Below are positions 20,918 through 62,500 of a stretch of DNA of 64,000 nt, one piece after another. A program made the position numbers and the translations under genes. Below the pieces are notes generated by a model. The model was not told the origin of the DNA, did not search any database, and saw nothing but the letters and a program-made list of their open reading frames with translations. Origin of the DNA: Amoebophrya sp. A120 (taxonomy: Eukaryota; Protista; Dinoflagellata); the NCBI GenBank assembly GCA_905178155.1, contig CAJINV010000001.1, positions 16,058,142 to 16,122,141 of the forward strand, in the 5' to 3' direction. The number at the start of each line of letters is the position of its first letter. Position 1 is the stretch's first letter.

Positions 20918-23900
20918 TCAGATTTCTACAGGTTTGGGGTTCGGATTACGAATATGCCGCATCGTCGCCCCGCCCGCCTGCGGCATGAACGGCGTGTGCT
21001 TACCATATGCCTTGGGCAGACCGTAGGCGCCTTCGGGAATGTACGCATTGACGCGGGGCTCTGCCGTGGTTCGAGTAACATTCGAATGCAAGATCACCTC
21101 CTCCTGCATGCGGGCCTGTAGGGTGCGTCATTTGAAAACGCATCGGAACTTGCAGAGTATGGACTTCGCACTTTAGCAAAAACACTTCGTCAGTCATATT
21201 CGACCACAGCTTCCGGTGCCCAACAAACAAATTACGCGGCACGAAATATTCAAATCACACAACATACCTTCGCCCGCTCCTGATCGGCCGCCCTTTGCGC
21301 CTCGAGCTGCACCAACTTCTGCAGCTCCTCTTCTGCGGTAGCAGTTGGTGGTTGGTTTTCCCGCAGACGGGCGCGCGCTTCGGCAGCAGCATCCCGGAGT
21401 AGGTTGGCTTCCTCGGACAGTTTCATACTCGTGGCCTGGTACATACTCAATTCGGAGACCGTAGCCATCATCTGTCGCGTAACTTCCTTCATCTTTGCCT
21501 GGAAAGCGTTCACCCGTTGCGACATCTTCAGCGTGGCCTGGCGCCCGTCAATGGCCTGCACCCGAAGCTTCTCGCTCAATGCGGTCACCTGTACGTTATT
21601 TTTTGCGAAAACAAATTCGCACATGATGGAAGCATTCCAGATTTAAAACCCGAAACCCTAATCGATACCGAAAAAAAATGAATGCACGAAGCGAACAAGT
21701 ACCTCTTCCACGATGAGCTCCTTTTCAAGAAGCTGTTCCTCCTTCGCATTTAGTCTCTCTTCCAGCCACTGTCTTTTTGCCATGAGTGTGTCTTTGTCTG
21801 GATCGGTGACCTGGCCCTCGCCAAGGAACCTCCACTTGCGTACCTGAAGATTCCAGAGTCGTCTTGTAGTTGTCTTGTTCCCCTTCCCAGACAGTGAAGT
21901 AAGTACTTAGATCTCTTGGGCAAAATAAGTAAGTAGAAGCTCTGTGGCCATTTGCATTTTTTCACAGAAGGAGCTCTAGACCACACCTTGCTGCTCGGGT
22001 TTTCCAACTCCGCAGACAGCGCGTCGGACTGTCGCTTCACGCCGCGCAGCTGGTCCTTTAATATCAGAACCTTCTCCGTATACTGGGCGGTGTCTTGTAT
22101 ACTTCGGTTCATGGAGACCTGTCGTGATATTGAGTCTCGTTAGATTTACCACATTAAGATCATCATCATATTTCATGTCCATTCTTAGTGCACGCTCGCG
22201 GCTATGATATTTCAAACCACAATCTGAACGGGCCACAATTGCAATACTTCTGATCATTCCCTCCGAATAAAACTACAACTGAACCTCCCTTCTATACCAT
22301 CCTCCTGTTAAGCGCCGCGAGGTCGATGCGGCAAGACCGGAGATTTTCCATTTTTTGCTGAATGGCCATCTCGCCTTTCTTCAGAAGCAGCTCCTGCACG
22401 TTCGACTTCTCCCATAGAATACACAGCTCGTCATTCCTGTCGATGAGCTGGATCCCGGTCTGGTTCCGCTGGCACACGGCGTCCTCGAACTTCTGTTTGG
22501 CCACGGTGATTTCTATGGAAGTGTCAGAATCGAAATTGACAAAATCGAAAAATTTCTGATGCATAAAATGTAGGGCACTGGAGGCCTGTATTGGGTAGCA
22601 GGCAAGTGAGACCGATTGGGAGCCTGTTTCGGGGTATACAATGTGCTGCCAGAGGAGCATGACAGGAGGAGCCTTCTTTGCCCAAACAGCATGACAGACT
22701 GGATTTGGGTGCTCCCGAAATTTGTCATGCGCCAGTTGGAAACTGAGGCTCCAACTGACATCGATTTTGTGCATCGCAAATTTTTCGACTTTGTCAATTT
22801 TGATTCTGACACTTCCATAATTTCCCGCTCCAATGTGTTGATCAACGCGTTCAGCTGGTCGATTTCCAGCACGTAGAGCTCCACGTTTTCGTTCGCCTGG
22901 TTTATCTTGTGCAGGATCCGAGTGAGCTCCAGCCGGTACGCGTCGCGCACCGCGCGCTGCTTCTTCGTCTGTTGCTGCGTTTCCGTGATGGTCTTGTCTT
23001 TCCCCGCGGATTCCAGTCTTAAAATCTCGATCTCGTTGCCCAGAACCTTGAAGCGCTCGCGCATCTCCGACAATTTTTGACTCGCGGCCTGGATCAGCGC
23101 GACGTACTTGTTGCGCTCGTTTTTCACCACTTCATACGCGGCGCAGAACTCCTTTTGCCGCTCCGTCACCTCGGCCAGCTTCTTTCGGAGGTCGAACTCC
23201 TCTAGTTGCTTCATCTGCACATTGTCCCACACCTCCTTGCTCAGCACCGTCGCGTTTTGCAGATCGCGGACCAGCTTCCCGTGCGCCTGCTCCACAAACC
23301 GCAGGTGCTTGCCCCAGTCGCTGTTTTGCCGCTTCAGGTTGGCGAGGTCCTGGCGGAGATCCTGCAGGCCTTGGTGCAGCGAGCTCAACTCCTCCTTCTT
23401 CTCCTTTTCGACGCTCTCCTGCTTCAGAAACGCGCCGATGAAAACGTCGACCTCGTTCTGAATCTCGTCTATAACCCGCTCAGCTGTTACAATCTCAAAC
23501 GTTACAATAAAATATGGAAATCTGTGATGCAAAAGATGGTGCATGACCTAACCTACTCCCACAGCATTGCGCATGACAAGTTCTGGAGTCCCAAACCGCA
23601 CTGGAATCTGGCGAAATTTGTATTGCAGAAAGTGGAACGCTGCGCGGGTCTGTCATGCTCATCATGCAATACAAAATCCAGATTCTATTGTAACGTTTGA
23701 GATTGTAACGTTTGAGCGGGTCATATCGTCCAGAAGCAGAATCTGCTTCTTGTTGTCCTCGGCTGCAGTGTTTTATTTACGAACGTTGCTAAAGATGATG
23801 GACTAGAAAAGTTGTTGCAGTGAATGAAATGGAAAAGAAACTCGCTCAGTACTTTCGGGTGGAAAGGAAATCACAAACCTACAAGTGAGAAAACAAGTAC

Positions 23901-25549
23901 AACTCTTTGCTATACACACTAAGTATCGTATAAGTACTTTTCAACTGTATCTCTTCGTCTAATTCTTTTTTCCTCGCAATCAAGGGCGGGATTTGGTGAC
24001 GCAGCTCTTTCACCGCCATTTCTTTCCTCCTGTAGTCGCGCTTTTGCCTTTCGAGCTGCTGCTCCTTCTTCGTTTTTTCATCCAACCCGTGTCTGATATC
24101 CTCGGAAACGATCCGCGTTTCCATGTCGATGCCAACTTTCTTGGCCAGCAGATCGGCGGAGGTGTTCCTCAGACGCTCGAGCTTTCGCTGAATTTCGCTG
24201 TATTCATCATTAACGGACACAACGGAGTCCTTCATGAGCTGAACGCGGAGCGTGGCCTTGCTTCGCTGGTCCTCTACTTTTTTTCGCTTCTTGATCAACT
24301 CTTCCGTGCGCGCGTCGGTCTTCTTCAAATCTTCTTGCACCTGATTAAGTCGGTTATTTTCGCTGTTTCGCCAGATTTATATTGCTTCGCGACTCCCCAG
24401 CGCAGCGTGAGCGTTCTTGATCGATGAAAGAATAGCATTAGCACAACATACACATAGGCATTGATTTCCGTGCTAGATTTACAAAAATCTATCCCAGTAC
24501 AATGTCGTCCGCGGCTTTCATGCTCTTCAAGACCGTTTCGAACTTTTCGACTTGCTTCTTCACTCGCCCTGGCTCGTTTTTTATCTTGTTTAGCTCCCGC
24601 TCGTGCTGCTCCATGTTTATTACATGCGTGGTCTCCAGGTCGTCCCGAAGCTGCGCTACACGCTCGAGGTCGCTGTGGTTTATTTTTCGGAAAAAATGTA
24701 ATGTCAACAGATGAAACGTACTGTACTTTAAACTTTTTCCCTTCAAGTTTTGTCAGCGCACAACCAAAAACGCCAGAAGGACTGATTATATGCAAGCAAC
24801 AACTAGTATAAGTACGCGTCTTTCTGTGCTTCTTTCTCCTTTTTGGTTATGTTGAGTTGGGCGATTTCTTCTTTTTGTAGGTGGAGAGTTGATTCCATGT
24901 TTTCCACGAGTGGTCGGAACGCGGCTTGTTCCGCCGCCTTTTTCGCGGCAATTTGCTCGACGAGCTCGCGGTGCTGTGCCTCCAGTTCCTGTGCCTTAAG
25001 ATCGTACGTCGCTTCGTCATCAAGTGCTGCTTCGAGCTGTTTGTCGAGCTCGCGTATTTTCACCCGTCGCGCATTCACCTGGTTCTGGTTGTCTTCCGCT
25101 TCTAGCAAGGCTTTTTCCATTTTTATCTTCTCCGCTGTTTTGTTTTTCATATTCCACCAATGGCATAAAGGGTGTGAACCCGTCATGCAGATCGATCTTG
25201 CACTCCATCAGAAACATGCAAAAAAAGTTATTTCCAAGTATCCAAATACTCCTTGTGCTTCTGTCGCACAGCGCGAGCACGTAAATTCTCAAAAATATAT
25301 ACCCATGAGTTTCGTGTTGAGTTCTTTCGCGGTCGACAGAAACTTCTTCTCGTTTTCGTAGATCTGCAGCACGCATTCGTGCTGCCTGCCGTATCGATCC
25401 TTGAGGATCTCCATCTGCTGCATGGGAATCTCACCATCCCGGGCAAGTTCGTCTAACACGTGAAACGCCACGGAGTTTTTTAGGCTCGTCTCGCCACCCT
25501 CGTCGGTTTCTTCCGGGTTCTCCTCGGAGTTCTCCTCAGCCTCCGACAT
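20918..25549 (-). CDS. CCDC146: Coiled-coil domain-containing protein 146 (MBO2-like flagellar protein), 11 exons
   Basis: Motifs KNERNKYVALIQ, GIQLIDRNDELCILWEK, KEEQLLEKELIVEEV and C-terminal TTAEPRVNAYIP…LPKAYG…PF.P…GATMRHIR.P…PVEI. Exons approx. 25549-25303, 25134-24816, 24672-24501, 24340-23938, 23762-23726, 23464-22820, 22508-22298, 22118-21987, 21843-21703, 21588-21268, 21115-20918. Eight GT-AG introns and two introner introns. Confidence 0.92.
22514..22819. mobile_element. Introner / MITE-like intron, family A (306 bp), in CCDC146
   Basis: About 55-bp TIR TATGGAAGTGTCAGAATCRAAATTGACAAARTCGAAAAATTT… with direct repeat ATTTC at 22509-22513 and 22820-22824. Removal restores …LERE-I-TVAKQKF…. 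Confidence 0.93.
23470..23725. mobile_element. Introner / MITE-like intron, family D (256 bp), in CCDC146
   Basis: TIR TATRACCCGCTCAnnnGTTACAATCTCAAACGTTACAATA with direct repeat TCGTC at 23465-23469 and 23726-23730. Removal restores …ILLLD-E-IQNEVDVF…. Confidence 0.92.
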
Positions 25550-26254: not shown

Positions 26255-29200
26255 TCATGTCTTCTTTGGTTTCACGCGGTGGGTAAATTCCTTCTGGGGA
26301 CTCAGCACCCGCAGGCAGTTTAACGCCCCGCACGGCCACAACCGGACCGCCACGTGAGTGGCCCGCCGGGCGGAAAACCCCTCAAAAGTCATGGTCGAGC
26401 CGGCGAAGGACTTCGCGTATCGCTTTTCGCAGAGTCGCTCAAAGTGGCCCGCCTGCAGCAGCCGCGCGCCCTGTCCCTCGTTTCCCGCGTCGGAAGCCGC
26501 CTGGGACAGCATGAGACCGCGTTCCAGCATCTGTTTCTCCTTCATTTTCCCGTCCTCCCCCTCCGTCCAATCCGTCGCAAACACCTCGACAAACTCCGCC
26601 ATATCATGAAAACTGTGGGAGAAGTCCAGCTCAACGCGTGAAATCGTCACGGGCTGCACCGTGTCGGTGGCGTTATTCCGGTCCCGCGCCAGCACCACAA
26701 CCAACACCGAGCCCTGCCCGACCGCCTGGTTCCTTTGGCGCGGGAACAGGATCCCGCGCTCATGCGTGAAGGGGCATTTCGGGTAAGAGACAAGGGGTAA
26801 ATATCGGGCCGGGACGTTGTCGGACAAGAGCGCTGTTGAGGATTCCTGCATGACCGGCTTCCCGATCTCTTGCCGGGCGAAGTCTGGAAACAGCACCAGT
26901 GCACCCAAATCGGAGGACGCGACATTCACCAAAATGTCGGCAACTTGCTCCGGTGGTCGCTTGTTCATCTGGGCCAGTGTATTTGCTGTCAAAAGCTGCT
27001 GGTTCAAGACGAACGTTCGTCTTTTCCGGAACGCGTTGGCCGAATCGGTGATGTCGACGGCCGGCTCCTCGTCCTCCTGTTCGAGTTGTTCCACTTTCAA
27101 TCGATCCTTCAGCAACCTGACGTCTTGCGCACTACTATATGGGGACGCCTCAGCCTCCGTGTAGGCAGTCGCTTTCGGGTTCTGCAGAAACGCCTTCCAC
27201 GCAGGGACATCCGCAACGCCAGCGGTATTTCGCCAATCGGAGTTTTTAGTACCGTTTTTATCCGCTAAAACTATCTCAACCAAATCCTTTTCTGCAAACA
27301 GTGCGATCCGCGCAACGCCGCCGTCCGGAAACATGCGCAACTCGAACTTCGTGCGGTTACTGCCTTCGTGACAGTCCTGCTTCGCGATGTTGTAGAGAAT
27401 TTTGCCGTTAATCCGCATCCAGTGCTGCGCGTTCGCAACCGGCTCTAGGGCGCGAGGGAGCAAGTCCACGTATTCTTTCTTCTTATGGTCAAAAACGCAG
27501 AGGAACACCCGCTCGGGCAAGTCTCCACTTTTTACAAATCCCGTCGAGAGGAAGAACATCCACGACGCGGTGTCGGCCGTGCTCGCGTTCCACAGAGTGT
27601 CTTTCCCTTCCACGTCGAACCTGACATAGTCAAACTTCGCCGGGTTGTGTCGGCGCGTGCACCAGGAATCGTAGTCGACGCTTGGAAAGAAGGGAGAAAA
27701 CAAGTTTTCCACTTTTCCCAGCGTCCCTACGTCAGTGGCGTCGGCGATGATTAAGTCAGACGCTGGGTTGGTGAAAATCTCTCCACCTGTGGTCCTACTG
27801 CGCTCGTCCTGCTGCTGTGATGAAGAGGCGTGCATCATAATTAACTGGTTCCTGGGCCCGCGGTCGTGTTTGCTTCGCTCGTCGCGAAGAAAGTCCTTTG
27901 CCTTCATCGGACAAACTTCCTTACTGATCAGCTTGCCAAAGAACCGCTGCTGAAATTTCTTCTGAAAAGTAAACACTTCTTCCCGCACCGCGGCCCCCAT
28001 CGCGTCTAGATCGGTGGAGAACTTCTCCTTTTTCGTTTCTTCACTTCCTTCTTTTGTCTTTCCCTCGCTCTCTACTGCAATTGCCGCTGTTGTATTGCCA
28101 GAAGTTGCAGCACTGTGGTCTTCCACGGCGGCTGCTTGCTCTTTCTGCTTCCGGCCCGCGAAGCCGAACTTGGAGCTGAAGACGGAGGTTGCGCAGGCCA
28201 CCCAGTGCTCTTCTTCAACGATCGTTGCCGCCACGTCGACCAGACAGGATAACCGCGCGCCCGCGTTGCAGCAGATCACACAGCCGCGACCGGAATCGGG
28301 TCCTTGGATGCAGAGGAGAAACAGGCCGCAGTGACCCTCGTTGGAAAAGTGCTGCATCACGAACTTTGCGTTGTCCACCCGATCGAAGCCCCGCGCCAGC
28401 AGCACCGCCCCACTGGTCGCGCCGTCGATCCCGGCCTGGCGCATGGCCTCGGAAGTTTCCTGGAAGTGGAGCTTGTCCCACAGCATTCGCGCGCCCTCGT
28501 GCGAAATTGCCGCAGATTTTTCATCAACGATACTGTTCCCGAACCCGTTGCACATGTTCGCCAGCAACCGACTAAACGCGAGTGGCGTCGCAATCGCGCC
28601 ACCCGCAAGCTCCGGGTACTGCAGCATCAACCGTTTCGCGGTGCTCGGTTTACTCGGGTCGTAATCTACCGGATGCCCCAACGCCGCGTAGGGCTCGATC
28701 GCGTCGCTCTCGTCGTCGTTTTCGTCCGCGACCCCCGGGCCGGTGGGAACCTCGTCGCTCATCCGGGCCTTGTTGACCCGGAAGCCCAGTTCGCGCACGT
28801 TGTTGCGCGGTTCCGCGAGCCAGGGCCGCAGAATGTCGTACATCGATGTTTTGTCCGGGGAGTGGAAGAGTTCCAGCAAGTATTGCAGGACCAGTGCGCC
28901 CGCCGGCGTCGGCTCGTACGCTTCCCGCGGTTCCCGGGCGACTGCTAGCTTGTCGTACCCGAGTTCCTCCGGTGCCTTTCCCCTCATGATGTCCAATACA
29001 GACGGTTTGTCGTCCTTGAGACCGCGGCCGACGAGCGGGCCGGCGCTGAGCACCGCGTGGCCCGTCAAGTCGCGGAGCCGCACTTGGTCCCCCGCCCCGG
29101 TCGCGCCCGCCAGGTCGGGCAGCACGTACGGTGCCCGCATCGCTCGCAGGATGTCGTTCACCGGCGTGTTCGCAAATAACTCAAACAGGGACCGCGGAGG

Positions 29201-32200
29201 CGGCGGGGGCGGCTCCTCCTCCTCCTCGCTCTCGTCCAGCGGCTTTTCCTTGATTTCGTAAAACAGGCTCTCCAGCTGCTCCGCCACCTTCTCCGGGAGC
29301 TCTCTCCGGTCCAGGGAGAGTTGCTTTTCCACGAAGAAGGCCGCGGCAAGAAGCTGCGAGAAACTGCCGAGTGAGAACAGCGTGTCCGCCCGCATGTGCT
29401 TCCGCGCGCTGTGGTACAAAAACCCGGATTTCCCGGCCACCACGGGCCGCTCGGGGAAGGAAACTTTTGGCAACGTCGGGATGAAATTGCTCGTGGTCAC
29501 GTAGTGCCTTCTAAACGGTTCAGCTTTGTCCGCGAAGCTTTGAAACGCGACCTGATCCGGTATACTTGCGGACGCGGCGGCCGAGCGCGGAGGCGCCTTC
29601 CGACGCACCATCATCCCCACATCGAGCGGACTCGCGTCCAGCGCGGCGTCCAGCGGCCGCAGCAGACTGACGCTGATCCCCGGCACGCCGTGGTTGCGGA
29701 CGCACCCGTCCACGGCGCGCTGCAGCCGCAGCCACCGGAAGGGCAGGTTCGTCAGGAGCCGCTGCAGCCGCTCGTGCAACGCAGTCTGCAGCAGGCCGCG
29801 CACGCGGGTCTGCAGCTCCGGCTTCAGCCCCCCGATGCCCCGGAGCTCGTGCCGCGTCTGCTCGTCAAACACATTCTCCTCGTCGAAGGGGAAGCCGCGG
29901 CGCAGCACGTCGAACGTGATGCCCTCGTCGACTACGAGAAAGCGCGAGAAGTCCAAGCAGTCGTGCTCCGAGCGAAACGACCCTCTGCCGCCCTCAAACA
30001 CCATGGCCTCCGCGTACTCCGCGCACAGGTAGACGTTTTCCATGTACCACACCTGCTCCGCGAGGGGGTTCGCAACCGAGGTCCAGTAGTGCCCCGGCCA
30101 CGCCTTCGCGACCAGGTCCCACGGGTCCGCGAACGTGTCCGCGTTCTCGAAGAGCGCGTCGTAGAGGAAAATGGTCAAGTACTCCTGCACGGAGTTCCGG
30201 CACACCTTGTCGCACACCAGCTGCACTAGCAACTGCAGCACCACGCGGTACCAAGGCTTGGTCCGGGAGGTGAATCGCAGCACGGTCGCGTGGTCAATCA
30301 AGTCCGGCAGCGGCGTCCCCTCGTCCTCCGTGCCCGCCGGCGGGTCGTAGGGGGTGATGAGACTCACGCGGTCCAAGTTTCGGTACTCCTCGAACAGCAT
30401 CTGCAGGAAGGTGTTCCGCGGTAGACGGCCGTGGTGCACCTCCAGCCACAGTTCCATGCGGGCCTTTTCCAAGCTCGCCAGGTCGTAGTACCGCAGCACC
30501 GCAATCGGGTCGCTGTTCACCTGGGCCCACACCGGCCGCACGAACTCCGGAAACCAGAGCGTGGTGAAGTCCCGGAAACAGGTGTAGTAGCACAGGTACT
30601 GCAGCGCCTCGCGGATGCTTTTCCGCACCTCTTTCTCCACGTACCGCAGCTGGGTCTTCGCCTTCCGCGGGTCCTTGCTCTCCACCTGCAGATTCTCGTC
30701 CAGAAACAAAACTTCGCGGGTGACCTCGTTGCTGCCGATGCCGTCGCGCTCGACCGGCCCCGTGATGCCCTGCACCTCGGCGCCCTGCTCCTCGTCCGTT
30801 TCGGCGTCCTCGTCCTCGCCCATCTGCGCGAAGAACATGATTTTCTTCAAGTGCCGCCGCACCACGTCCAACCGCCCGTCCCACAAAAAGGGGTTTCGCG
30901 ACCGCGCCGTCACGCTCTTCAGCAGCGCGTAGCACACCTCCAGCGCCTCCTGCTTGGCCTCCGTGAATTCCGTGGGGTCGTCCAGCCACTTCGTCCGGGC
31001 CTGCCAGTATCGCGAGTACACATCCCAGACGCACAGCCCCGGGCGGACGTAGTCTTGCGCGTAGCAGCAGAACCCGTCCAGCCCCGCCTGGACGTGGGCC
31101 ACCACCTCGCGGACCAGTTCCAGCATCACCACGACGTCCGATGCGATGCGCTCCTCCGACTGCGCGTCCAGGTAGGGGTTGAACAGCTCGGGCCCTCCGG
31201 GGGCAACGCTCTTCATTTTGCCCGCCAGCGTTTGCGACACGGCAAACCCGCAGAGCGCGAAGTGGGTGCCCGTGGCAACCAGGTCCTCGCCGACCATCGA
31301 GCGCAGCCACACGCGCTGCATCTGCAGCCCCTGGCGGAGCCGCTTCTCGTCCGTGCGGCGCAGCACCCGAAACAGCGGGTCGCGCCGCTGGGACCGGGCC
31401 AGCGCCGCGAAAAACTGGTCGGTGGAACCCAGCCCGACGCTGACCACCACGTCGCTGTCGGCTGTGGTTGTGTTGTTTCCGCGTCCGAGCAGGTCTGCGA
31501 CGGCCGGCACCGCGTCCAGCAAAAATCGCGGGTGCTCGCAGGTGACAGCCAACTTGACTTTCGGAACAGCTTTCTTCACCGCCACCGCCTTTGACGCCAG
31601 CCCGCGCAGCTTGCCAAGGCCCCCAACTTGCGGCTTGTTTGCAGCAGAGGCTCTATTCCCAGTTCCGCTTGTCCCGGTCGGCAGTAGCGCCAACGCACTG
31701 TCGATCAGGTTGCGGACGTACAGGGCTTCTTCGCGCGAGTGCAAGTTGCCCACCTCGAAGGTCAGCTCCGCGAGGTCCTTGTTGTGGTAAAGGAGCAGGC
31801 AAACGCAGTACAAGTGCAGCGGCAGTGGGTCGCGCCCGTCCACCAGATGCCACCAGTCCGCCAGCTCGAGATCGGGCAGCCGCGTTCGCAGCGCCGCTTT
31901 CTTCCGCTGATCACCTCGCAAATTCGGCGTGGTCCCGTGCAGACAGTAATGCAAACCCTGGAGGCACTTGGCTACCGCCGTCACGTCGCCGACGCAGGCG
32001 TCGACGTTGGCGCAAAACTTCGGCAACAGCGCGGATTTCGTGATCACTTTGCTCACCTCCGTGACCTCCTTGTCCTTGCCCGCGTGGGCCGTCGCGAGGC
32101 CGTACTCCGGCTCGGCCTCCAGCGGGCCGGCCGCACCCCGGAAGCTCACAAAAACACGGTCGCGGTTCACCTTCCGCCGCGCCATGTCGCGGATGCTGGC

Positions 32201-32857: not shown

Positions 32858-34953
32858 CGTTCGTGTGTTGTGTCGCTGCAACGCTTTGGAGAGGGAGCAG
32901 TGCAGGCAGCACAGGTCGACGTGACGCGAGCAACATTAGCAAGAACGAATCAACATAATCCGTCTGGCTTCTCTGCTTTTGTCATCCGATAGAATCGCGA
33001 GGAAATGAGTTGATGCTTTTCATGCTAGCATATCTGTTATCTTTAAGTTGAAATCAAGTCGGGGGCATTTCTTCATGCTGGCGAGCAGCTGGTACAACCT
33101 TGTGTAGTACCGAGCAAGTAACTACGCACATGATACAGAATAGGTCCACGCTTCTGGTTGAGAGGAGGTTAATATCAAATCTTCACAACTGAGGTCATTC
33201 CCCTGTTCACTTCCATCTGATGTAAAATCTGTGCAGCTGCTGCAAAACCAGAGACTAGCGCGAAGAGCGACGACGTAAAACGAAGGAGGACGAATAACGC
33301 GATTTCTGAACGATATAAAATGAGTACACGCCACGAGGCTCTTGACAGCAGTAGCACGATTTTTCAATATTTCAGCCCGCTAGGCGCAATGAATTTATGT
33401 GGACGACGAGAAGGCACGCAACAAAGAAACACAAGGAAACGAACGAAAAAATGATCCGGAAATCTCACACAACCAAGGCGAAGCAAAGGCCCCCGTTCAT
33501 GTGACAGTTCTATTTTCCCGCACCAACATGCTTCGACAATGATGCAAAAGCTTGACCATTTCATGCCTGCGATTCCTCGTCGCATCGAGGAGAACACTGA
33601 ATCCAATAACATGCTGAAGAACACGACTGACTTTTTCTAAACCACATGTATGTCAGTGTGGCGCTCAATCACTTAAAGTCATTCTCATCTCGTTCCTTAG
33701 CAACATTCTGGAGGTTGTACTTACCCCTAAATGGTTGTTCTCATACCGTCTCCCAGTACTTTCGCTGAGGAGGACTTTTGAGATGCAAATTATATTCGTT
33801 TGCGTATAGATATGTTTTTCGTGGTGGAACCCGGAAAACGCGGAGCCTTGATCTCCAGAGTCCGTGCTTTCTTCCTCGCCAGCAGGTCGGACTGAGCTTC
33901 TGCTTGGCGTGGACCTGACAAAAAGCATGGTGGTAGCGTTGCCAAAACGAGGTATAAACTAGTTTACTTTTCATGACTAAAAGTTTTTCCCTTGTTGCTA
34001 TAGGTTAAAAACTTTTTCATGCCTCAAATCAAAATCAAACCAAATGGCTTTCAAGTTGCCTAGTGCAACTCGAGACTCTACCCAGGGCTAGAAAGGAAGT
34101 CCCATAGAGAGTCACGGCAAGACAGTCATCGCTAGGGTCTTAGGGGCAGAATTCTTGGATATCTGTGCTACACCCCGACCGAAGCCTATATCTCTCTGCG
34201 AGTCAACAACGAACTCTCACAGCAATCAACAACGAGCATTCTACAGTAGTTCAAAACTTTTTGTGCGGGGCGACAAACTAAAACAAGCCTAAAAAAAGGT
34301 TCTTGTCTCTGCTTCTCGCTATGAGGCTGTCAAATAAACATAAATCGGCTAAAGAATTTTGTTGGTGCTATCGTAATAAATTCTCAATTATGCGTGTTCT
34401 GACGACGATGCTGTTGTCTATAAAAAAACTGCTTCTTCGCTTACAGCTCGCCGACTATTAGACTGATCACAAACCACGGACAACAATCAAGGCCTCGTTG
34501 GTCGTACAACTACTTCCCGGTGGCAATAACATGTACGAAATTTACATATCCACCTGATAGTACCCAAGTTTCCTTCTTTTTATTCATCTCGTCTTTTTCA
34601 ATTATCCACGGCGGCCGGCGTCCGAAAAGCAGCAAAGGGAGTGCGCTATCAACTGCAAACCAATCTATCTGTGTCTGGAAAATTGCAAAATTGTGTGTAG
34701 TGTTGTCATGCTAAGCACCTCGGAAGGGAGCTGAGCATTTGCCAATGCACGCACACCACCTCGGCGCTTGGAAAATGTCGCCAGACTCAGCTACCCTGCC
34801 GACTCATTACCGGTTTGTTGAGAGGCGAAATTCAAATTAACCTCACACAGGTTGGCTAATTTGTTTCTCATGCAAAAACACGATTTGCTCTCGTGTTAGA
34901 ATTGCAACTTGGATATTGCTCAAAGCTGCTCAGGCGAACTAAAAGTCCTTATT

Positions 34954-37900
34954 TCATGATGACCCTATTAGCAACGCAAGTCTAGTACTCTCGCACTTTT
35001 CCAGACTCAGAGATATCATTGCAGTCGATACGAAGTCATCGAAGTCCGTGTTAGAGCCAACGCGGAATTGACCCAGAGACTCACTCCTGTCGCTCTGGCT
35101 CTTCCCTTCTCCAAGTAACCGACTCGGAGCAAGCATCTCCTCCATCGTAGCATGGTGGAGCTGGTCCACCGTCGTCCACGCCTCTGCGTGATCACTCCCT
35201 CCCAGAACATGTGCCCGAGTCGCTCCTTCTTTGATTGGCAAATACACCGTCGTTGCGTCACGAGAGCCCTCTCCCATCCCCGTCCCGATTAGCACTGCTT
35301 TTGGTCCGTCCGGCAGTAGCGTGGCTTGGACCAGGCCTAGTTCGGCGTTGAAGCGCCGGTCAAGGCGGTCCTGTCTTAACATTTCTCGGGCTTTCTCCAT
35401 GGAAATATTTCCGTCCTCGACAAAGTCTTCGATTGTGAATTCAGGATCTCCCATGTTTCTCCACTTAGGGACATCCCCTTCTGCTGGGTCCTCATCATCC
35501 ATTATGTGACACAGAAAAAAACGCGCGCATCATTGTTGTATATGCACTAAAACATAAATATTTGTTCTGTCGAAAGTCAGTACGTATCATGGAGCCCAAA
35601 CCATGCCGCTTTGTTGAGATATGCAACTTGGAGGTGCGTCTCCCTCTCCTTGTAGTAGAGTAGTTGTAGTCTGTTCTTGCATTACAAGAGATGCGATAGG
35701 GTGCCTTACTTTTTTCTCTGAGATACAGGAAATGGAGTTTCATGGCAGGGGTCGCTAGACTCCACCGTCGATTGGCGCTAGCAAGATCTTGGTCAGTCAG
35801 CCATTTTCTCGTGAAGTCGTACACCGACTCCATTGACCCCCCGGCCACCAGCCGAATAAACTCTTGCACTTTTGCGTACGGAAAACGCAGCGTAGTTTTG
35901 TAATGGAGCTCCAATAAAGATCGCTCGGAAAGCTGCTGGCTTATACCTGCACCCACCTCGACGGCGTTCCTGCCGCCCATTTTGCGCCACAGCAACTTGA
36001 AAAACCGCTGCTCAACGGCCGCGCAGTGTCGCCTTTCTGGGCTGCCTTCGTCCGGGCCTCCAAAAGCTTCGCAAACACGGTCTAGGATGCGCGTCTGCAG
36101 CGTTTCGACGATAAAGGCCCATTCGTTCGCGGCAGTCGCATCGATAATGGCGTCTGTTCGAAACGCTATCAGGTTTACGACGCCACATGGGTAGATGAAC
36201 TGATCCTCTCCTTGCTTAAGCTTCGGCTCCGAGTCGTCGAATCGCTTTCCAAAGTACCTTTTGATAAGCGCTTGAATCAGGCCTTTGTACAGTGCTTCAT
36301 GGTCTTGAATCAGCGCAACAACGGGCAAAGGACCAGACTGGCCCTGCGGCGGAAAGTAAAAGCGAAACTTCGTATCAAAGCGAAAAGTGCCCGACCTTCA
36401 GAACAACAAAATAATTGTCGTGCAAAGTTCCGACTACGACCCAAACACACAATCCCCTTCGTCGTGCAAAATATAAATTTCTACATGGAAAACTCTGCAA
36501 CTACAAAAAAGAAACTTTTTGTGAAATCCGACGCGTTTTGTTTCAGAATCTATTCGAGTTTTCCAGCTCTAATCAATGGCATGACGTACACTGTGCTTGT
36601 GCGCACCACAGTTTCTCGCTATCATCGATTTAAAATTGGTGCTGCTGACCAAGAGTTTTCTGCAGAGAAACTTTGCTTTAGAAACATTCCCCCTTTCTTC
36701 TGGAAAGGCGCTTTTCTTCTTGATACTTCGCATGGGTGCGCAGAGCGAGGCCAACTGCGCGACTTACGGACTTCTCGGGGACTACGTCGCTGCTACTTGG
36801 CAGCTTCTGCAAAAACTCGTTATGGACGAGCGCTTCCACTGCGGTCGCGAGTGTGCCTCTGCCATTCGGGACCATTTCTTTTTGAAGCCGGAGCACAAAC
36901 TGCCCAATACTGTAGGGCCCTCGGGCTTCTGTCTGCAGGCGTGCGAGATACCGCGACTCTGCCCCGGTTCCGTCATCAGAGGCGGCATTTCCACGACCCA
37001 GAAAATGCTCAGGAAGGTCAGTCCCACTGCAGGTGTCCGGCGTCAATGCACAAAGTAGCGTCCATGGGGTTGTCCAAATTTCCGCACCGTCTCCTTTGAA
37101 GAATAACGGTAACTCGTCCGCCGACTTGGATTTGCCAAGCACCTTGTCATACACAGATGGCCACACAGTGAGTTTTTCTTTGAGCCCTAGTTGTTGCGGC
37201 GTGGGCGGGCTTCGCAAGATACGCAGCGACTCCAAACACGTGAGGCTTTCCTCAACCTTCTCCGCTAGCCCTTCGGCGGAGAGCTCGCGTTCCGGTTGCA
37301 CAACGTCCAACTTTTCCGGAGTAAATTCAAGCTGGAGGCAAGCGGGGGCGCGATAGGCAGTCTTCATCAGACGAAAGTCGGTCTTCATAAACCTTGCCGC
37401 CAGCTCGGTGTGTGCCATAGTGTTGGCGAATTGGTTGCTGTGAACGGTGACTGAAGGGAACTCTGCTCCACCCATGCCCTGCTCCAGCAATACCGGCCTC
37501 TGCGTCTGGGCTACTTTCTTCAGGTCAGCACGATCGTCCGGGCCCAAAAAGGATTCTTCGAGCGCATCGCCGTACGTCAGGTCCACTTGCGTTGGCAGCT
37601 GGAGTGCGGCTGGAACGCCATCTCGATCCGGAACGAAAGCACGACCAAACTCATGCAGAAACGAGCGCAGCAAGTTCAGCATGTGTGTTCGTGCGGCCTG
37701 CACAGCCGGCAGTGCGTCCTGCCTCAACTGTCGCAAAAATCGCGCTACCACCACTAGCATCACACGTCGACGGTGTAGGTCTTCCCAAAAAACGCCAAAC
37801 CGCCTCAGATTTCTGTATCCCACAGGAAAGAAAAAGGATAGTCATAGTGTCAGCGTATAATGCAAAAATAGTTTACCAATTCTCTAAGTACTTTTACACA

Positions 37901-41493: not shown

Positions 41494-44400
41494 TTATTCG
41501 GAATAATATCCCAAAACGCCCAAATCTGCCTGCAGCCGGACGTGGTTCAGGTGCGTGCCAAAGCTGAACAAGTTTCCGCCCCCGCCGACCAGGTGCAACT
41601 TCCCTCCATCCAAGCTCGCGGAGTGGTGCATGCAGAGAAAGTTACAGTCGGGTTGAAGCTTGGTAGAATTCTGGCTTTTTTCATCGATCTGCAAGGTGAT
41701 GATGTCCGTGATTTCGCACTGTTCGAAAGAAAAAAAGAACAGGGGAATTTCAGCACTGCTGTTCTCGCTCTTTGACACCAAGCAGTCGCCCACAATCAGT
41801 GCGCCAGAGGAGGTCCTCCTCCCTGATTTATCATTATCTGGCGGGATGCCGTCCGCTTGGCTGCTCTCCCGCGACGGCGCATTTCGCCTCTCGCAGGGTA
41901 GGACAGGACAGCCGTAAATCCCGGCAAGGACCGAGGGCGGGGGTACCATCGTCCCGGCGTCATTGCAAAGCTGTTCACGCGCAGCCGTCATCAAGGAATC
42001 GCTCAAGATTTGCACCGGGCTAAAAGAGGCTGAACTAGAGCTTGTGACGTCTTGTTCTATCCTTTCCATATCCATTCCCAGTGCCTCATCCGGAATAAAC
42101 AACACTTCACCGAGCCAGTTTTCCGCTCCGTCCAGGCCACCAAACAGGTACGCCCCTCCGTTTGGGCCCCAGCAGCAGGAGAGACTGTGCCGCGCGGTCG
42201 GAAGCGTGAACGGAAGCTTCCGCCATTGGATGAAAGTGTTCGTCGTTGTTCCCAGTTCTCCTGTGTTTTCCTCCTCCTTTTCGTTGGAGGATCTTGCCGT
42301 GTCGGAAGATACAGCTACTACCCCGGGTCGATTTTCGATTCTCCCACGCCAGATCTCGTTTGATGCCGCCCCGTGCTCGCCCCTGCCACCGAACACAAAA
42401 ACTTCGTGCCGAGTCGAAGAAGACAGATTATCTTGTTCGCAACTGCCCCTCCGCCGAACCAGCGTGGCGTGGCGATAGATACCTGGTGGACCCTCGGCCT
42501 CGGTGGCAAAGCGGGGCTCATTTTCCGCCGCGGTGGGCGGGGGATCCTCGAGAGCACAAGGCTGTAGTAGAGCCGCATCGTCACTGCAGGCAACAAAGTT
42601 GTTTTTCCCGTCGTCGGTTTCGTGGATGCTGAGAAGTTGTTGCGCCATGACTCTCCTTGACGTTTTCGTTGTTCCCTGGTGCTGAAGCGACGGCTTCCAC
42701 GGACTAGTGCGGCCTCCAAGTACTAGCACTTTATTCGAGGACGTTGCAGAGCCCGCCGGAGATGCGAAGTCGTCTAGCACCACCGCGCTCGCTCCCATGG
42801 GGCAGGCCATCGCTGCCGCACCCGGCGCCGGATTTTTATGAGAGGGAGCAGCACTCCCGCCACTGTGCAAAACACTAACCGTCGTGTCCTGGTGGGGAAA
42901 TAACACACCTGCGCTACTAGTAGTGCAACCACTATGATCCTCCGCCACACACACCATTGCCACACTGTTCAGTCGCTGGTGATTACCCGCTGCAGTCTTG
43001 CCGAAACCGCCATGCAAGCAGAAAGCTTTCCTCTGCCGATCGAACCACACCGCGGAGCCGTACCGCGCTCCCAAGGAGCAGGGGAACGCGCGTCCGCTCG
43101 CACGGGAGACCGAGATGGAGGACAAGGACTGCTCGGCTTGTACATCTCGCAATCGTTTCCAACACGTCGGTTTCGTTTCTACTTCGTTGCTAGGACCACT
43201 AGCTGCTGCTGTTCCTTGGTTCAGCATGATTCTCGCGAGCGCAGACCGGTCGTTCCCGCCGGCAATGAGCACGTAGTGCTGGAGCTTTGCGTGCCACTCT
43301 TCAAATTCGTCGAAGGGTTCGATTGTTTTCCACCGTTCCAGCACGTCTCTATTTTCCGCGTCGTACAGAAACTCCAGCAGCGTTCGGCAACCGGCGAATT
43401 GCAGCCCTTGGTGCAGAAAGCGCTCGGCCTGGGCCACCGGGGTCGGGTACCGGTGGTAGGCAAACAGCGGGCTTCCTCGCTTGCGGAAGTGCGCGTCCAT
43501 CACGAGCCCAAAATTCGTGTGCGGCAGCACCTGCTCGTAGGACAGAACCGTGTGGGGCGCGGAGCTCTCCGCGAAGATCTTGCCTACGGTGCGCACGACC
43601 GCGTCGGCCTCGTCGGTCGGCAAGTAGCACAGCACCACCTCGGCGAGCACCAATGTCGGCCGGTTTGCGGCGGCGAACGGCGCCAACCGCCTGCGCACCT
43701 CCTGCCGATCGGTGAGGTCGCAGCCAAGCAGTAGTTGGGCGCAGGGGCGGGGGCCTGCTTTTGGGGGGGATGGAGGGTCATGATCCGCGCTTGTTCTTGC
43801 GTTATCGTGCTCTGGAGGCGGAAACGCGTGGGCGTTCCGAGCCATAATCTCTTTTTTGCGCGTGAGGAGGTCCGGAAAATCCAGCTCAACGAACGCACCA
43901 ATCCGAGTTCGGTCGTAGTTCTTTGGGAAGGTTGTTATATCTGCCTCGGTGCTGGTGCTGTCTGTGTTTCGGTGGTGCAACCGCCAGTACAGTGTGTCGA
44001 ACCCTGCCCCGAGAACGATGATCTGCGTTGCCGTGTTATCCTGTGTAAAAACATCCCCACCCCAGAGTTGTCATGCTAAAGGAATTGCAGCACACTTTGC
44101 CCCCCCCTCTGCCCCAGGCCGCAGATGGCTTGACACGCAGGGGGGGTAGGTCAGGCGGACACCGAAGTGCCATCACCATCATCTCCCGGCCGCTAACCAA
44201 CTTTTCGCAACCTGCCATACTCCTCACTTATTCGCAATTTTTTTCCGGCTCCGCCGTCCCTGCAGGCTAGTATGTACGTGCGCCCGAGACATATAACACG
44301 TCCTCAAGTGCAACAGCACCCAAGGCGGTTTTCCTGACGCATGCAAAACAGTGCTCAGTCGGAAAACCTGGGATCACGCATAAACTACCTGGAGATTCGC

Positions 44401-45455
44401 AACCAACCATACTTGTCTCACAACCAGCCTTACTTTTCGCGCCAACACTTAGTCCTTTTGCCAACAGTTTCACGCCCACATCCAACCCCAGAGTTGTCAT
44501 GCAGATCTGCATGCGCAGGAGCATTTGTAATGCGCATCCCCATGAGAGGCATTTCCCAGCGTATTTTGGAACTTGTAATGCTGTAAACAGGGTCGGGAGA
44601 TGGATTTGCTATGCGGCTTCCCTTGCTAAACTGCATTACACTACAGCCTGCAACTTGTCATGCGTGGCTCCCAAAACTTCGAGGTTTGTGTTGCAGAATC
44701 CCCAGCTTGACTCTGGGGTGGGGACGTTTTTACAAATGATACGTGTCCGGGTAAAAGTCGATAAACCTGCGCACCGTGCGCTCCACAAGCTCGTACCGGA
44801 TCGCGTAGCCTCGGTGGATCAGCGGTGCCCGCCGTTTGATGCTTTGTGCGCCAGTCAGGTTGGGTGCCTTCGGGACGGACGACGCGGTGGCTTGTTTGCC
44901 CTTCGGTACGACGAGCGCTTTTTGTTCCGCGCCGGGGGCCACCAGGTCGTGGCTTGAGGTTCCAGTAGGCGTTTCGGTTCTATTCTTCGTGGTCGGAGAC
45001 GAGGATGCAGCTCCAGCTGCCGGGCACTGGCGACGCGCTACTCCCGCCGAGCGCTTGTCTTCGGTGCGCGGGCTGCTGCCGCTTGAAGGTTCCCACGAAT
45101 CCAGGCCTCCTTCCTTGTTTTGCTCTTTTCTTGACCCTTCCTCCGCTTCGGCATCTTTGTCCGTAATATCGGGCCTCGGTTTATTTGCGCTACTACGTTT
45201 GTGCTGCGTACTGCGTTTGCTGCCTCTTTGCGTCCCGCGATTCTCCGGAGTAGACACGACACCGGGGGGTGAGGCCGCCTTCGCCGGCCGCGTTGCTGCC
45301 CCTACTTCCTCGAACGCGAAGTACTCAACCCAGGGATCTTTGAAATACCCGAAGCGCACGGTGGAGGCCTTGGACACGATGGAGCTGTCGTTTGTTAGCT
45401 GAACACACATGGCATCTTGCGTGCCGCCAGCGGCCGCCGAAGTGGTTGACGCCAT
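41494..45455 (-). CDS. TYW4: tRNA wybutosine-synthesizing protein 4 / leucine carboxyl methyltransferase 2 (LCM domain + Kelch repeats)
   Basis: Motifs VQLTNDSSIVSKAS…GYFKDPW, RRAPLIHRGY, QIIVLGAGFDTLYWRL, VELDFPD, AEVVLCYL and EPFDEFEEWH, followed by Kelch motifs (HGGFG, VLGGRTSP, VFGGRG, LFGGLD, GGGGNLFSFGT). Two exons (45455-44742, 44031-41494) are split by an introner. Confidence 0.92.
44037..44741. mobile_element. Introner / MITE-like intron, family B, compound (705 bp), in TYW4
   Basis: TIR TATCMTKTGTAAAAACRTCCCCACCCCAGAGT with direct repeat CGTGT at 44032-44036 and 44742-44746. Removal restores …FYPDT-ATQIIVLGAGFD…. Confidence 0.93.
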
Positions 45456-46080: not shown

Positions 46081-46162
46081 AGGGCGGCGCAGGCCAGGGC
46101 GGCGCAGGCCAGGGCGGCGAAGGCCAGGGCGGCGCAGGCCAGGGCGGCGCAGGCCAGGGCGG
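46081..46162 (+). repeat. 15-bp tandem repeat (AGGGCGGCGCAGGCC) x about 5.5
   Basis: Near-perfect tandem copies read directly; degenerate copies flank the array. Confidence 0.9.
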
Positions 46163-46214
46163 GGGTGCGGCGCAGGTCCAGGCGGCGCAGGCCCGGGCGG
46201 CGGAGGCCTGGGCG

Positions 46215-46624: not shown

Positions 46625-47377
46625 TGTTAAATCCGGCAGGGGGAGAGGGAGAACACGACCCCCCACCGGCTAAGCAACCCACATCAGCGTGGGGCAGATC
46701 GATCACAGTAGTAGTGATTCTGGTGGTATAGCAGCCAAACTAGTAGACAAACAGCATGGGAATCATCAACAACAGTCGCCATCCATCATCATCAACATCG
46801 ACAAGCATAGCAGCAGCCTCCTCCGTGTGCTGACCTCTCTACTGGGCTCCAACCCTCGACAAGTTACCCTCCAGGCGGACCATCTACCGACACTCTCGAT
46901 AGACTACAACGACACAAACACCAGAAAGCTAGCGCCAATCGCTATAGTTTCACTATAGGGCCACAATGTGGCGCCACGGCCGCCGCCACAAGGTGACCGT
47001 GGCCCACTTTGTTATACACGACCCCCCACCGGCTAAGCAACCCACATCAGCGTGGGGCAGATCGATCACAGTAGTATTGATTCTGGTGGTATAGCAGCCA
47101 AACTAGTAGACAAACAGCATGGGAATACTCAACAACAGTCGCCATCCATCATCATCAACATCGACAAGCATAGCAGCAGCCTCCTCTGTGTGCTGACCTC
47201 TCTACTGGGCTCCGACCCTCGACCAGATACCCTCCAGGTGGACCATCTACCGACACTCTCGATAGACTACAACGACACAAACACCAGAAAGCTAGCCCCA
47301 ATCGCTATAATTTCACTATAGGGCCACAATGTGGCGCCACGGCCGCCGCCACAAGGTGCCCGTGTCCCACTTTGTTA
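46625..47377. mobile_element. 753-bp solo-LTR-like insertion with an internal 363-bp tandem duplication and 5-bp target-site duplication
   Basis: GGCCA is duplicated at 46620-46624 and 47378-47382, and removal restores a satellite unit. The element starts TGTTA and ends TGTTA. 46653-47014 is repeated near-identically at 47016-47377. Confidence 0.75.
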
Positions 47378-47703
47378 GGCCAGCCACAATTGCAAAATTT
47401 AAGGCATTGGCTTGCCAAAATCAGAAAATCCGGGGCGTTGGCCTGCCAAAATCGCAAAATCTTGGGCATTAGCTGACCAAACTTGCAAAAACTTGGGCGG
47501 TGACCAGCCAAAATTTCAGAATATTCGGCGTTGGTCAGCCAAAATCGGAAAATCTTGGGCGTGGGCCGGCCAAAATTGCAAAAAACTTGGGCACTGGCCA
47601 GCGAAAGTTGTAAAATATTGGGCGCTGGCCGGCAGAAATCGCGAAATTTTTGGCAATGGCCGGCCAAAATTGCCAAATCTTTGGCGGTGGCCGGCCAAAA
47701 TCG
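47378..47703 (+). repeat. 31-bp minisatellite, right arm, about 10 degenerate copies
   Basis: Same unit as 46215-46624, continuing in phase after the insertion. Confidence 0.85.
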
Positions 47704-59598: not shown

Positions 59599-62500
59599 AT
59601 GGACGACTCCGACGTGCTCGAGTTTCAGGTTTCCTCCCGCGAGGTGGGGCGCATCATTGGCACCAAGGGGTGCAACATTCGTGCCCTGGAGCAGGGTTCG
59701 CAATGCCGCATCAAAACGCCGGGAAAGCGGCCCGCGCCCCAGTTTGGTGGCGTTCAGAACAACGAGCGCGATGACGACGAGGACGAGAACTGCATGATTC
59801 GAATCACGGGCGGCAACGAGAAGTTGCGCAAACGCTGTAAGGAAGCAATTGACGCGGTGCTGATGGGCAGCGACCCGGGGGACGTCTTCGCGGAGCTCGA
59901 CGGTGCTGGCCTGATTCGAAATTTAGACCCCGTAGTCTTGAACTATCTCGGCAAGGAGAAGCAGCGGCTAGAAACCGATCACAAGGTCCGGCTGGAGCTG
60001 GAGGCGAAGTCGCTACGCATCTGGGATCAGGACGTGTACGGCAACTACGCAGGTGGTTCGTCGAGCTCGTCCTCCAGAGGTGGGGGGAAAAATGGCCAGA
60101 AGGGACGAGGAAAAAAGGCCGGAGGAAAAAATCACCACAAAGGTGGTCCTGCCATGGATGTGGACGAGGAGAGTACAACAACTACAGCGACTTTCAACCA
60201 GAACAACGTGGGCAGTAGTTCAACCGGCGTCGCCAAGTCCGACCGGATTGAGCAGGCCCGCCAGGCCATACAGCAGGAGATAGACGACTTGCAGACCAGC
60301 GAGGAGATTATCGTGCGCGTGCCGGGGAACCGCGTGAACCAGATCATAAACCACAGTTCGCTGCGGCAGTTGCAGGATACCTCGCATATCCAAACAATGG
60401 TGACGAAGGATGACGAGGGCACGGGGATCCGGCTGATCGGACTAAAGGGCGCGATCGAGGAAGGGCGAAATTGCATCGAAAAGCTGATCCAGGGCGAGGG
60501 TGCGGATTTTCTCGCGCTCTACCCGAATTTGATTCAGGATCTGCTCGGGAAGAACCGCCGCATGGAAGCGGATTTCCACCGCGACTTGAAGTCCGCGGCC
60601 GAGTTATCATTTGTAAAAATGTCCTCACCCCATAGTTGTCATGCAATTCTGCATGCTGAAGATGTTTCTCATGCGGAGCCCCATGAGAAGCATTTTCCAA
60701 TCGTGTTTCAGACTTTATTGTGCTCCAATCAGCATGATATGCTAGATTTGTGATGCTAGTGAACTAGCTAAACAGGATTACACTCTGAGACCAAACTTGT
60801 CATGCGCAACAACCAAGCCTTGTGGATTTTTTTAGCAGATTTCCCATCTTCACTCTGGGGTGGGGACGTTTTTACACAGGATACGAGTACTGCGGGGTGC
60901 GGGTATCGTTGGAGGGAACCAAGTTGGCTTTCTCCGACGCAAACCCGGAGCAGGTGCACTACGCGTATCAAATGTAAAAATGTCTGGGTCTGGAAGAATG
61001 CAACTTGTCTAGCTAAATCTGAAGCGTGCAAAAATCTGTGTTGCATGATTACCAAAAGTCGTCCAGTTTTGACAAAGTCGGGAGGCAGTTTCTCACGCAG
61101 GGTAGGCATGAGAAAGATCGCACAGAATCTGTCATGCTAGGTCCTGCATTCCAGACCTCATGGGTCATGGAAAAGCTGCATGACAAATCGCGCATTCTTC
61201 CAGACCCAGACATTTTTACATTTGATAACGCGAAGGCCGAGGCCATGAACATCCTCACCTACTACTTCCCGCAAAACTGCTATGGATGTGTCAGAGTTGA
61301 AATCGACAAAGTTGAAATAACTTGTCAAGCATAAAACCGATACCAGTTGGAAGCCCAATTTCCAAGCGGCGCATGACAAATTTGAGTAGAGCCGAAGCCC
61401 AGTTTGTCATGGTGTTTGGGTAAGGAAGACGCCTTTTGTCATGCTACTTTAGCAGCTCTATTTCTACCCCGAAACAGGCTTACAATCTGCCTCCCTTGCC
61501 TACTCTGCAAGACAGGCAGTTTCTCCGTTGCATTTTATGCATGACAAATCATTTCAACTTTGTCGATTTCAACTCTGACACTTCCATAACTGCGCCAAAC
61601 TGGAAATCGCCGAGCAGTCGGTGGTATCAAATGTAAAAATGTCTGGGTCTGGAAGAATGCAAGTTTGTCATGCTTGTCTGGCATGACTGGTAAATCTCTC
61701 ATGCACATTACCAAAGAGCCCCACTTTTCTGTCATGCAGAGACGCAATTTGTCATGCAGAATAGGCAACACTTACAAGCTCAGAAATTTGTCATGCTGAG
61801 CCAGCACTTGTGGCCTCCTCATGCTACGCCACTCAGCATCACAGGTTTCCAGACATCCAGGGATTTTTGCATTTGATAGGTGGACTACGTGGCCGGGGAG
61901 GAGGACCGGAATTTGATGCGGCTGCAGCAGTATCAAATGTAAAAATGTCTGGGTCTGGAAACTTGTGATGCTGGGTGGCGTCTCATCATGAGGCTACAGA
62001 TGCTGGCTCAGCATGACAAGTTTCTGAGCTCCTAGGTGTTGCCTATTCTGCATGACAAGCTGCGCTTCTGCATCACAGAAAAACGAAGCTCTTGGGTAAC
62101 ATGCATGACAGATTTAAGAGTCATGCCAGACAAGCATGACAAACATGAATTCTTCCAGACCCAGACATTTTTACATTTGATAAGCAGATGGGCGCGAGCG
62201 TGTCCCTGGATCGCGATCACGGCTACGTCTGGGTCTGCGCGCCGCAGGCCCGGAACGTTGACGCAGTGCGAAAACGCATCGACGACCTGCAAACCAGCTG
62301 GCGGGAACTTTTTCAGGTAGTTAGAAGCATTCTTGCGCGGAGGTAGCTCACCTCGTAGTAATTTTGTGTAATGCTGCTTGGTGTAATTCGAAATAGCGGC
62401 GCGCTCCATGCGTCAGTAATTTTTTCTACTCCCCATGCCACCAACAGGTGATATCAGTTCGACACCAGGGGGACTTTGGCAAGCTCTTCAGTCGCGATGG

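Follow-up and report, generated by a model that had tools for sequence, protein, structure and literature searches.

Introner elements of Amoebophrya and their nearest relatives

Farhat et al. (2021) reported that 65% of 66,565 RNA-seq-supported introns of the dinoflagellate Amoebophrya sp. A120 are non-canonical (PMC7789003). The same paper describes introner elements with inverted repeats and direct repeats of 3-5 nt, in 29,850 copies and 1,954 families, with a motif that has seven looser bases between TAT and a run of A; the elements are missing from A120 RNA-seq (PMC7789003). It reports U2, U4, U5 and U6 small nuclear RNAs (snRNAs) and 83 of 89 spliceosomal proteins in A120, gives U1 snRNA and the minor spliceosome as not found, and concludes that removal should differ from normal splicing (PMC7789003). 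According to Gozashti et al. (2025), most A120 families are DNA elements with terminal inverted repeats (TIRs), of unknown superfamily and with automatic duplication calls of 2-5 bp (PMC12130899). Other Amoebophrya strains are reported to use GT-AG (PMC12005148). The central question is how about 30,000 non-GT-AG introns are removed in A120. Here we analyse a stretch of 64,000 nt from this organism (contig CAJINV010000001.1, positions 16,058,142 to 16,122,141), called the window below, in which a sequence-only reading had placed eight TIR elements inside coding exons of three genes.

The sequence-only reading had linked these elements to the Amoebophrya introners, and rightly so: the window matches an A120 protein, and the TAT start and repeats of 3-5 nt are described for the published elements (PMC7789003). 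Both sets share the organism at the tested gene, the TAT inverted-repeat motif, the flanking repeats (5 bp in the legend of Fig. S19), a length of about 240 nt, the mixing with GT-AG introns within one gene, and an open mechanism (PMC7789003). The paper speaks of variable repeats and 'no clear splicing signature', whereas we find that one strict rule (element plus five bases), random orientation and sliding by aligners explain most of this variety; this is nothing different in kind, and the figures of that paper may show part of it (PMC7789003). The element class, the organism and the open question of removal are thus already in print, and the elements themselves are no discovery. In a search that covered subscription literature thinly, we came across no paper that explains how the elements are removed, describes their orientation as random or connects them with SOS splicing, and none that links AKAP17A, CAAP1 or RTCB to alveolates.

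Three further systems are close. The nonconventional introns of Euglena resemble MITEs (miniature inverted-repeat transposable elements), lie between flanking repeats, lack GT-AG and occur alongside spliceosomal introns; their inverted ends are set back from the cuts by fixed spacers, and the machinery is unknown there as well (PMC12501133, PMC11282704). They differ by a short CAG/CTG-type motif at fixed offsets and by a purine rule at the exon start (PMC12501133, PMC11282704). In the A120 elements the TIRs are long and specific to the family, the ends are TAT, the repeat follows no base rule, and the CAG/CTG-type motif was not found in the end logos. In SOS splicing, DNA transposons are removed from RNA through pairing of their inverted terminal repeats irrespective of repeat sequence, the sites are rarely GU-AG, and RTCB ligates the ends (PMC12779559). 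That process is imprecise, leaves indels and rescues rare insertions (PMC12779559), whereas removal in A120 would be exact and genome-wide. The exonic elements of the window are predicted to have pairing inverted ends as in SOS splicing; protein-level evidence points to an exact product, which may exist beside other isoforms. Introners of Micromonas, Aureococcus and Symbiodinium are also non-autonomous TIR elements with a target duplication, enriched in exons and without net change to the mRNA, but they carry or co-opt GT, GC or GA sites with AG (PMC9860276, PMC11282704), which the A120-type elements do not. As for ciliate-type internal eliminated sequences (IESs), the A120-type elements are retained in both assemblies seen.

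Elements and exon junctions in the window

All eight elements lie where the sequence-only reading had put them, with TAT...ATA ends and exact 5-bp direct repeats (given below in the sense of the gene). Two interrupt a coiled-coil gene of the CCDC146/CFAP58 family (20918..25549, minus strand, 941 aa, identified by Pfam), which also has eight GT-AG introns: E1 (22514..22819, 306 bp, repeat GAAAT at 22820-22824 and 22509-22513) and E2 (23470..23725, 256 bp, GACGA). E3 (44037..44741, 705 bp, ACACG) is the sole interruption of a minus-strand LCMT2/TYW4-like gene (41494..45455), in which Pfam finds a leucine carboxyl methyltransferase and weak Kelch matches. The remaining five lie within 1.6 kb of a plus-strand multi-KH-domain gene (Pfam; 59599..62753, up to the donor of its last intron), separated by exons of 31-77 nt: E4 (60605..60883, 279 bp, CGAGT), E5 (60966..61227, 262 bp, ACGCG, with a perfect 36-bp TIR), E6 (61281..61588, 308 bp, ACTGC), E7 (61625..61878, 254 bp, GGTGG) and E8 (61931..62182, 252 bp, AGCAG). 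A GT-AG intron follows at 62317-62447.

Evidence for the element-plus-five product comes from the CCDC146-family gene. One of its exons is 100% identical to the deposited Amoebophrya sp. A120 protein P0004 (CAD7929488.1), and all 941 aa of that protein are reproduced exactly from the window by removal of the eight GT-AG introns plus two segments of 261 and 311 nt, which are E2 and E1 with five extra bases each. Neither removal has a GT-AG solution. The A120 annotation behind P0004 is transcript-based, and the comparison with a deposited A120 protein covers this one gene.

Junctions were further tested against homologues, three for the KH gene and six for CCDC146, by removing the element with -4, -1, +2, +5, +8 or +11 bases and by trying every in-frame G[TC]-AG pair up to 40 nt away. 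Removal of the element plus five bases was best at all seven junctions that homologues can test (five KH, two CCDC146), and the spliced KH frame aligns with its A25 orthologue without gaps at all five element junctions. The in-frame canonical alternatives, which the sequence-only reading had named as what would refute it, score below element plus five except at GGTGG, where a canonical pair ties. Its claim that deleting the element and one repeat restores the frame in eight of eight cases is borne out by homologues at these seven junctions; for E3, and for the additional element E9 described below, the analysis settles the frame class (removal of 2, 5 or 8 extra bases) and no more. Each 5-bp repeat allows six equivalent registers. 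GT-AG can be reached for GGTGG (E7) alone, and no dinucleotide pair is common to all elements in any register, as had been noted. The statement that the host genes also carry ordinary GT-AG introns applies to CCDC146 (eight) and KH (at least one) but fails for TYW4, a 1,083-codon frame with no other intron. Given the protein evidence and the literature on the class, the removal at the window junctions is likely exact and at the RNA level.

A scan of the window for TAT...ATA pairs with an exact 5-bp repeat returned 19, of which nine have complementary ends: the eight above and E9 (36373..36725, minus strand, 353 bp, CGAAG). E9 has a weaker TIR and lies in the open frame of an unnamed gene (35495..37841, minus strand, no Pfam match), which is open over 662 codons only if 2, 5 or 8 extra bases are removed. 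Of the 59 TAT/ATA pairs whose ends are complementary at 13 or more of 20 bases, nine have the exact repeat; 30 local shuffles gave a mean of 0.067 and a maximum of 1 for the combination of TIR pair and repeat. Weak TIR pairs taken without the repeat are noise (59 versus 52 in shuffles). When the TAT requirement was dropped, the window yielded no other class of repeat-flanked TIR elements. A tenth element, E10 (34647..35030, minus strand, 384 bp), has a TIR and no 5-bp repeat, and its status is uncertain. The G on each of its flanks permits a GT-AG intron to be drawn around it, in the frame that removal of element plus five would give.

The long TIRs of the sequence-only reading are real, matching at 93% over up to 56 nt and at 82% over up to 74 nt. 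Its TAT...ATA rule holds throughout the window (TAT start in 10 of 10 elements, 5-bp repeat in 9 of 10) and loosens outside it, where 20 of 296 copies deviate. E1, E2 and E6 have no A run at the published motif position. E1 and E6 are related, as are E3 and E4, and E5, E7 and E8. E1 and E6 form one family in one orientation, whereas E7/E8, E5/E8 and E3/E4 are opposed relative to transcription. E7 is an inverted relative of E8 (219 of 254 positions identical), and a 47-nt exon is flanked by these inverted copies (230 nt, 87%).

The heptamer TGTCATG/CATGACA occurs 26 times exactly in the window, 25 of them inside the ten elements, and is present in 200 of 221 outside copies (described below). 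It is common to otherwise unrelated families at about 2.6 per copy, points inward and is most frequent 40-60 nt inside each end. A role as branch point was rejected, as the counts in the two directions are 302 and 273; this equality makes a transposase-binding or structural role more likely. Rfam gave no match in the window.

Element density is very uneven across the window. An uninterrupted frame of 2,226 codons (26255-32935, minus strand), with an allantoicase-repeat match only, is element-free. In the Protein Data Bank, the downstream TYW4 exon matches LCMT1/2 and the upstream exon matches nothing. The intergenic stretch 46071-47703 is a repeat block in which an array with a 15-bp unit is followed by 13 units of 31 bp, two copies of 363 bp (96%) and a further 10 units of 31 bp.

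One length rule in further copies

A metagenome scan with a 22-base TIR found at least 133 loci, 132 of them from one contig set (JACKZZ01 identifiers) and 53 with short flanks. Counts of copies outside the window (about 330) refer to the 132 metagenome loci listed. These contain the window families at 86-95% identity (best full-length matches) and no window gene, and their organism may not be A120. Among 207 outside copies, 196 fall into 17 families. A self-trained gene parser gave a confident strand for 81 of the 132 loci.

The repeat length is nearly constant. Among 360 candidates, exact repeats of 5 bp were found in 226, of 3 bp in five, of 4 bp in two, of 6 or 7 bp in none and of 8 bp in one. 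For 327 outer pairs defined by end profiles in the 132 loci, 0, 1, 2, 3, 4 and 5 mismatches occur in 244, 47, 15, 6, 9 and 6 pairs, and the 244 exact repeats compare with 1.2 expected among 335 shuffled pairs. Reading frames called separately on the two sides fit removal of element plus five in 90 of 106 well-scored cases, with 2 of 16 training segments out of frame, and in 145 of 190 at the lowest cut, where one third is expected. Off-length repeats are too few to prove a ruler: one is exact at 8 bp, one is partial (L060) and one is unsupported (L003). The 8-bp case (L029:4329-4608) lies in an open frame, in which element plus five and element plus eight are one codon apart. A possible viral carriage was also dropped; two pattern matches were seen in viral contigs, and the one inspected (L134) arose by chance in AT-rich coding sequence.

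Of 253 located copies, 221 are exonic, 14 intronic, 11 intergenic and 7 at edges, while exons make up 52% of bases; ordinary introns, at 27% of bases, are depleted. Exon enrichment of introners is known (PMC9860276). Several GT-AG introns called by the parser in these loci begin and end one base outside a TIR, which together with E10 hints that some copies turn into ordinary introns.

Signals of splicing were sought in the 176 exonic copies with exact repeats. GT-AG can be reached in 8 in the sense direction versus 4 in antisense (1 of 9 in the window), and G[TCA]-AG in 22 versus 13. G at repeat positions 1 and 5 occurs at 1.12 and 0.94 of expectation, and once codons are corrected for, the target shows no clear preference for any base. 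A surplus of G|TAT...ATA|G in the sense direction (16 versus 5, and 19 versus 6 in a second count) was rejected as a signal, since exon base composition gives 18.5. Altered TAT/ATA ends do not mark copies rescued by GT-AG (6 of 18, versus 64 of 233 with intact ends). The first base of the repeat falls at codon position 3 in 83 copies and at the other positions in 49 and 44, perhaps through a weak target preference. The logos of the 5' and 3' ends, from 221 copies, mirror each other as TAT(C/G) followed by the A run, with 87-95% A at positions 11-13. Orientation relative to transcription is random; in the six largest of the 17 families it is 34:38, 18:10, 13:12, 6:11, 2:10 and 4:4.

The repeats need not be identical, and 45 of the 221 exonic copies have mismatches. 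Single mismatches are synonymous in 14 of 36 cases, where 0.32-0.46 is expected if one copy is coding and the other free. A local call had given 16 of 25 synonymous, suggesting that both copies code (through a variable cut or ribosome hopping), and this was dropped after whole-locus parsing gave 14 of 36. L029:5990-6301 would gain a stop if the downstream copy supplied repeat position 1. A search for homologues of genes with mismatched repeats gave no match for the L061 exon and, for the L029 exon, a single match that is an unspliced frame from the same contig. The database protein P0047 (L029:1820-4012), an unspliced frame that begins within one element and ends within the next, illustrates how such loci are mis-called. 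These results show one length rule (element plus five), no sequence rule at the cut sites, no direction, and tolerance of repeat mismatches.

The same rule bears on the published variety of splice sites. When the register nearest GT-AG is taken from the six equivalent ones, the top classes are CT-AG, AT-AG and GT-AC, which are the first three A120 rows of Table S4 (PMC7789003). When the register nearest GT-AG or CT-AC is taken, 5' ends are GT 27.5, GC 2.7, GA 6.6 and AT 15.2%, and 3' ends AG 33.9 and AC 22.5%. The published A120 values are GT 26.8, GC 5.0, GA 5.2 and AT 17.8% at 5' ends and AG 29.0 and AC 17.6% at 3' ends (PMC12130899), taken from the seven largest among the first 20 of 58 A120 rows (n = 1,994). 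No single fixed register fits the published ends on both sides. The match is rough, and the 'diverse splice sites' look largely to come from aligners sliding within the repeat.

Routes of removal

The sequence-only reading had concluded that a second, structure-guided excision system is implied, acting on RNA or on DNA. The tests above support the need for a route other than GT-AG splicing, and the DNA option is disfavoured by the presence of elements in two independent assemblies and the absence of the class from RNA-seq. On balance, we lean slightly towards a non-spliceosomal cut-and-join at the RNA level, measured from the terminal stem, that removes the element and five bases. A bolder version, which we think possible but would not bet on, is a second spliceosome-independent pathway of A120 that accepts any TIR hairpin with a 5-nt stagger equal to the target duplication; it would be a precise, genome-scale counterpart of SOS splicing, serving about 30,000 introns at any target and in either orientation. 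Euglena nonconventional introns and SOS splicing, as described, are precedents for the removal of TIR elements from RNA by end pairing (PMC12501133, PMC12779559).

The elements, read as non-coding TIR transposon copies, may have spread by a DDE transposase in trans, and the TA..TA ends point to the integrase-like IS3EU/GingerRoot/IS481EU/Ginger group. In this group, IS3EU/GingerRoot share the TA..TA ends, IS481EU has TNT..AYA ends, and Ginger2 makes duplications of 4-5 bp (PMC10045372). IS3EU/GingerRoot differ in their 6-bp duplication (0 of 360 candidates here, versus 226 with 5 bp), and IS481EU in duplications of about 4, 15 or 25 bp (PMC10045372). One A120 introner family is reported to contain integrase-like open reading frames within its TIRs (PMC12130899); with the 5-bp duplication, this suggests an unclassified integrase-type DDE transposase acting in trans. 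No transposase frame was identified in seven copies longer than 380 bp (six in the loci, and E3), whose frames are short or repetitive by inspection, without a Pfam scan. Two copies of about 1 kb with exact repeats (L071:2177-3221 and L032:4001-4972) have frames that look repetitive or short.

In the pre-mRNA, the element ends would form a hairpin, whose symmetric end signal may be recognised. Two cuts could then be made at distances from the stem that sum to 5. Joining might be by an RtcB-type or similar ligase, by analogy with SOS splicing, and the intron may be released as a non-lariat, as in Euglena. If the ruler equals the duplication length, each new copy would arise as a clean intron wherever and in whichever direction it inserted, and the tens of thousands of exonic copies would be accounted for.

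Fold predictions agree with the hairpin step. The terminal stem is predicted closed in all ten window elements, with 8-12 of the first 12 bases paired and z from -1.8 to -11.7, and at least 6 of 12 terminal pairs are predicted in 83% of 218 outside copies. Several results weigh against a stem-measured cut-and-join. G-U and A-C oppositions in the TIRs number 125 and 130 (207 copies), which gives no sign of selection for RNA pairing, and sense and antisense strands fold alike. Private mutations at TIR positions 4-25 (2.3-2.8%) are about as frequent as in the interior (2.8%; 148 copies, 8 families), and changes that keep a wobble or break a pair number 25 and 22. The cut register could not be read from mismatched repeats by codon likelihood (54 sites, p 0.26; single mismatches, p 0.89). 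In the predicted equilibrium fold of the KH region, the outer ends of E7 and E8 are paired across the two elements instead of within each. This would skip the 47-nt exon and shift the frame, so that correct removal would depend on folding while transcription proceeds or on skipped exons being tolerated. SOS splicing, moreover, is imprecise whereas element removal must be exact, and A120 retains U2, U4, U5, U6 and 83 of 89 spliceosomal proteins.

These last components would be used by a remodelled U2-type spliceosome, in which a hairpin or an element-binding protein replaces recognition of the 5' and 3' sites and U2/U5/U6 chemistry proceeds through a lariat. We regard this as unlikely, though it is the rival to be taken most seriously. 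U1 snRNA is undetected in A120 while U2, U4, U5, U6 and nearly all proteins are present (PMC7789003), and the spliceosome of Fritillaria processes MITE-derived non-canonical introns (PMC11282704). Those introns, however, keep preferred end dinucleotides (PMC11282704), and the sister strain A25 is reported to have a U1-70K homologue (PMC12787238), so that the missing U1 snRNA may be a detection failure. In the A120 elements, one register gives T at position 2 of every intron and another gives A at position -2, but both hold jointly only if two extra bases are removed, which homologues reject at 7 of 7 junctions. Also in its favour, mutations at terminal positions 1-3 are about half as frequent as in the interior (8 of 603, p 0.03 uncorrected). 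Against it stand the lack of junction base preference, the random orientation and the predicted stem over the last 30-70 bases, in which the branch region would be buried.

Precise excision from DNA in the manner of ciliate IESs, which would yield templates free of elements at some stage or from a disposable set of chromosomes, is very unlikely. It does predict loss of the element with one target copy, random orientation and no signature of RNA pairing, since recognition would be at the DNA level. The elements are nevertheless fixed in the assembly of the window and in an independent one. No split between germline and somatic nuclei is known in Amoebophrya, so excision would be inherited. The 2021 search reported no transposase in A120 (PMC7789003). 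Depletion from ordinary introns is more easily explained by elements that are in the pre-mRNA, although a preference for GC-rich targets could also produce it (PMC9860276).

Template switching is classically provoked by a hairpin next to a direct repeat. Junctions made by reverse transcriptase jumping across the hairpin, with the genes broken, or ribosomes hopping over retained elements, would be favoured by that arrangement, by published support that is cDNA-based (PMC7789003) and by a 5-nt repeat that always contains one whole in-frame codon, but are highly improbable given conserved frames that stay intact after removal, 221 exonic copies in 81 loci, and 45 mismatched repeats with amino-acid changes at 22 of 36 single mismatches, a pattern at odds with hopping between matched codons.

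The reported variety of splice sites is reduced here to one rule, element plus five at any target and in either direction, which is sharply testable. The KH gene is a natural substrate: its 1.6 kb hold five elements, among them one with a GT-AG option and an inverted pair predicted to cause exon skipping, beside an ordinary intron. Should the pathway prove exact and independent of the spliceosome, a scarless excision tool that needs no particular sequence would become available, and the A120 elements would join Euglena introns and animal SOS splicing as evidence that distant eukaryotes evolved or kept structure-guided removal of transposons from mRNA.

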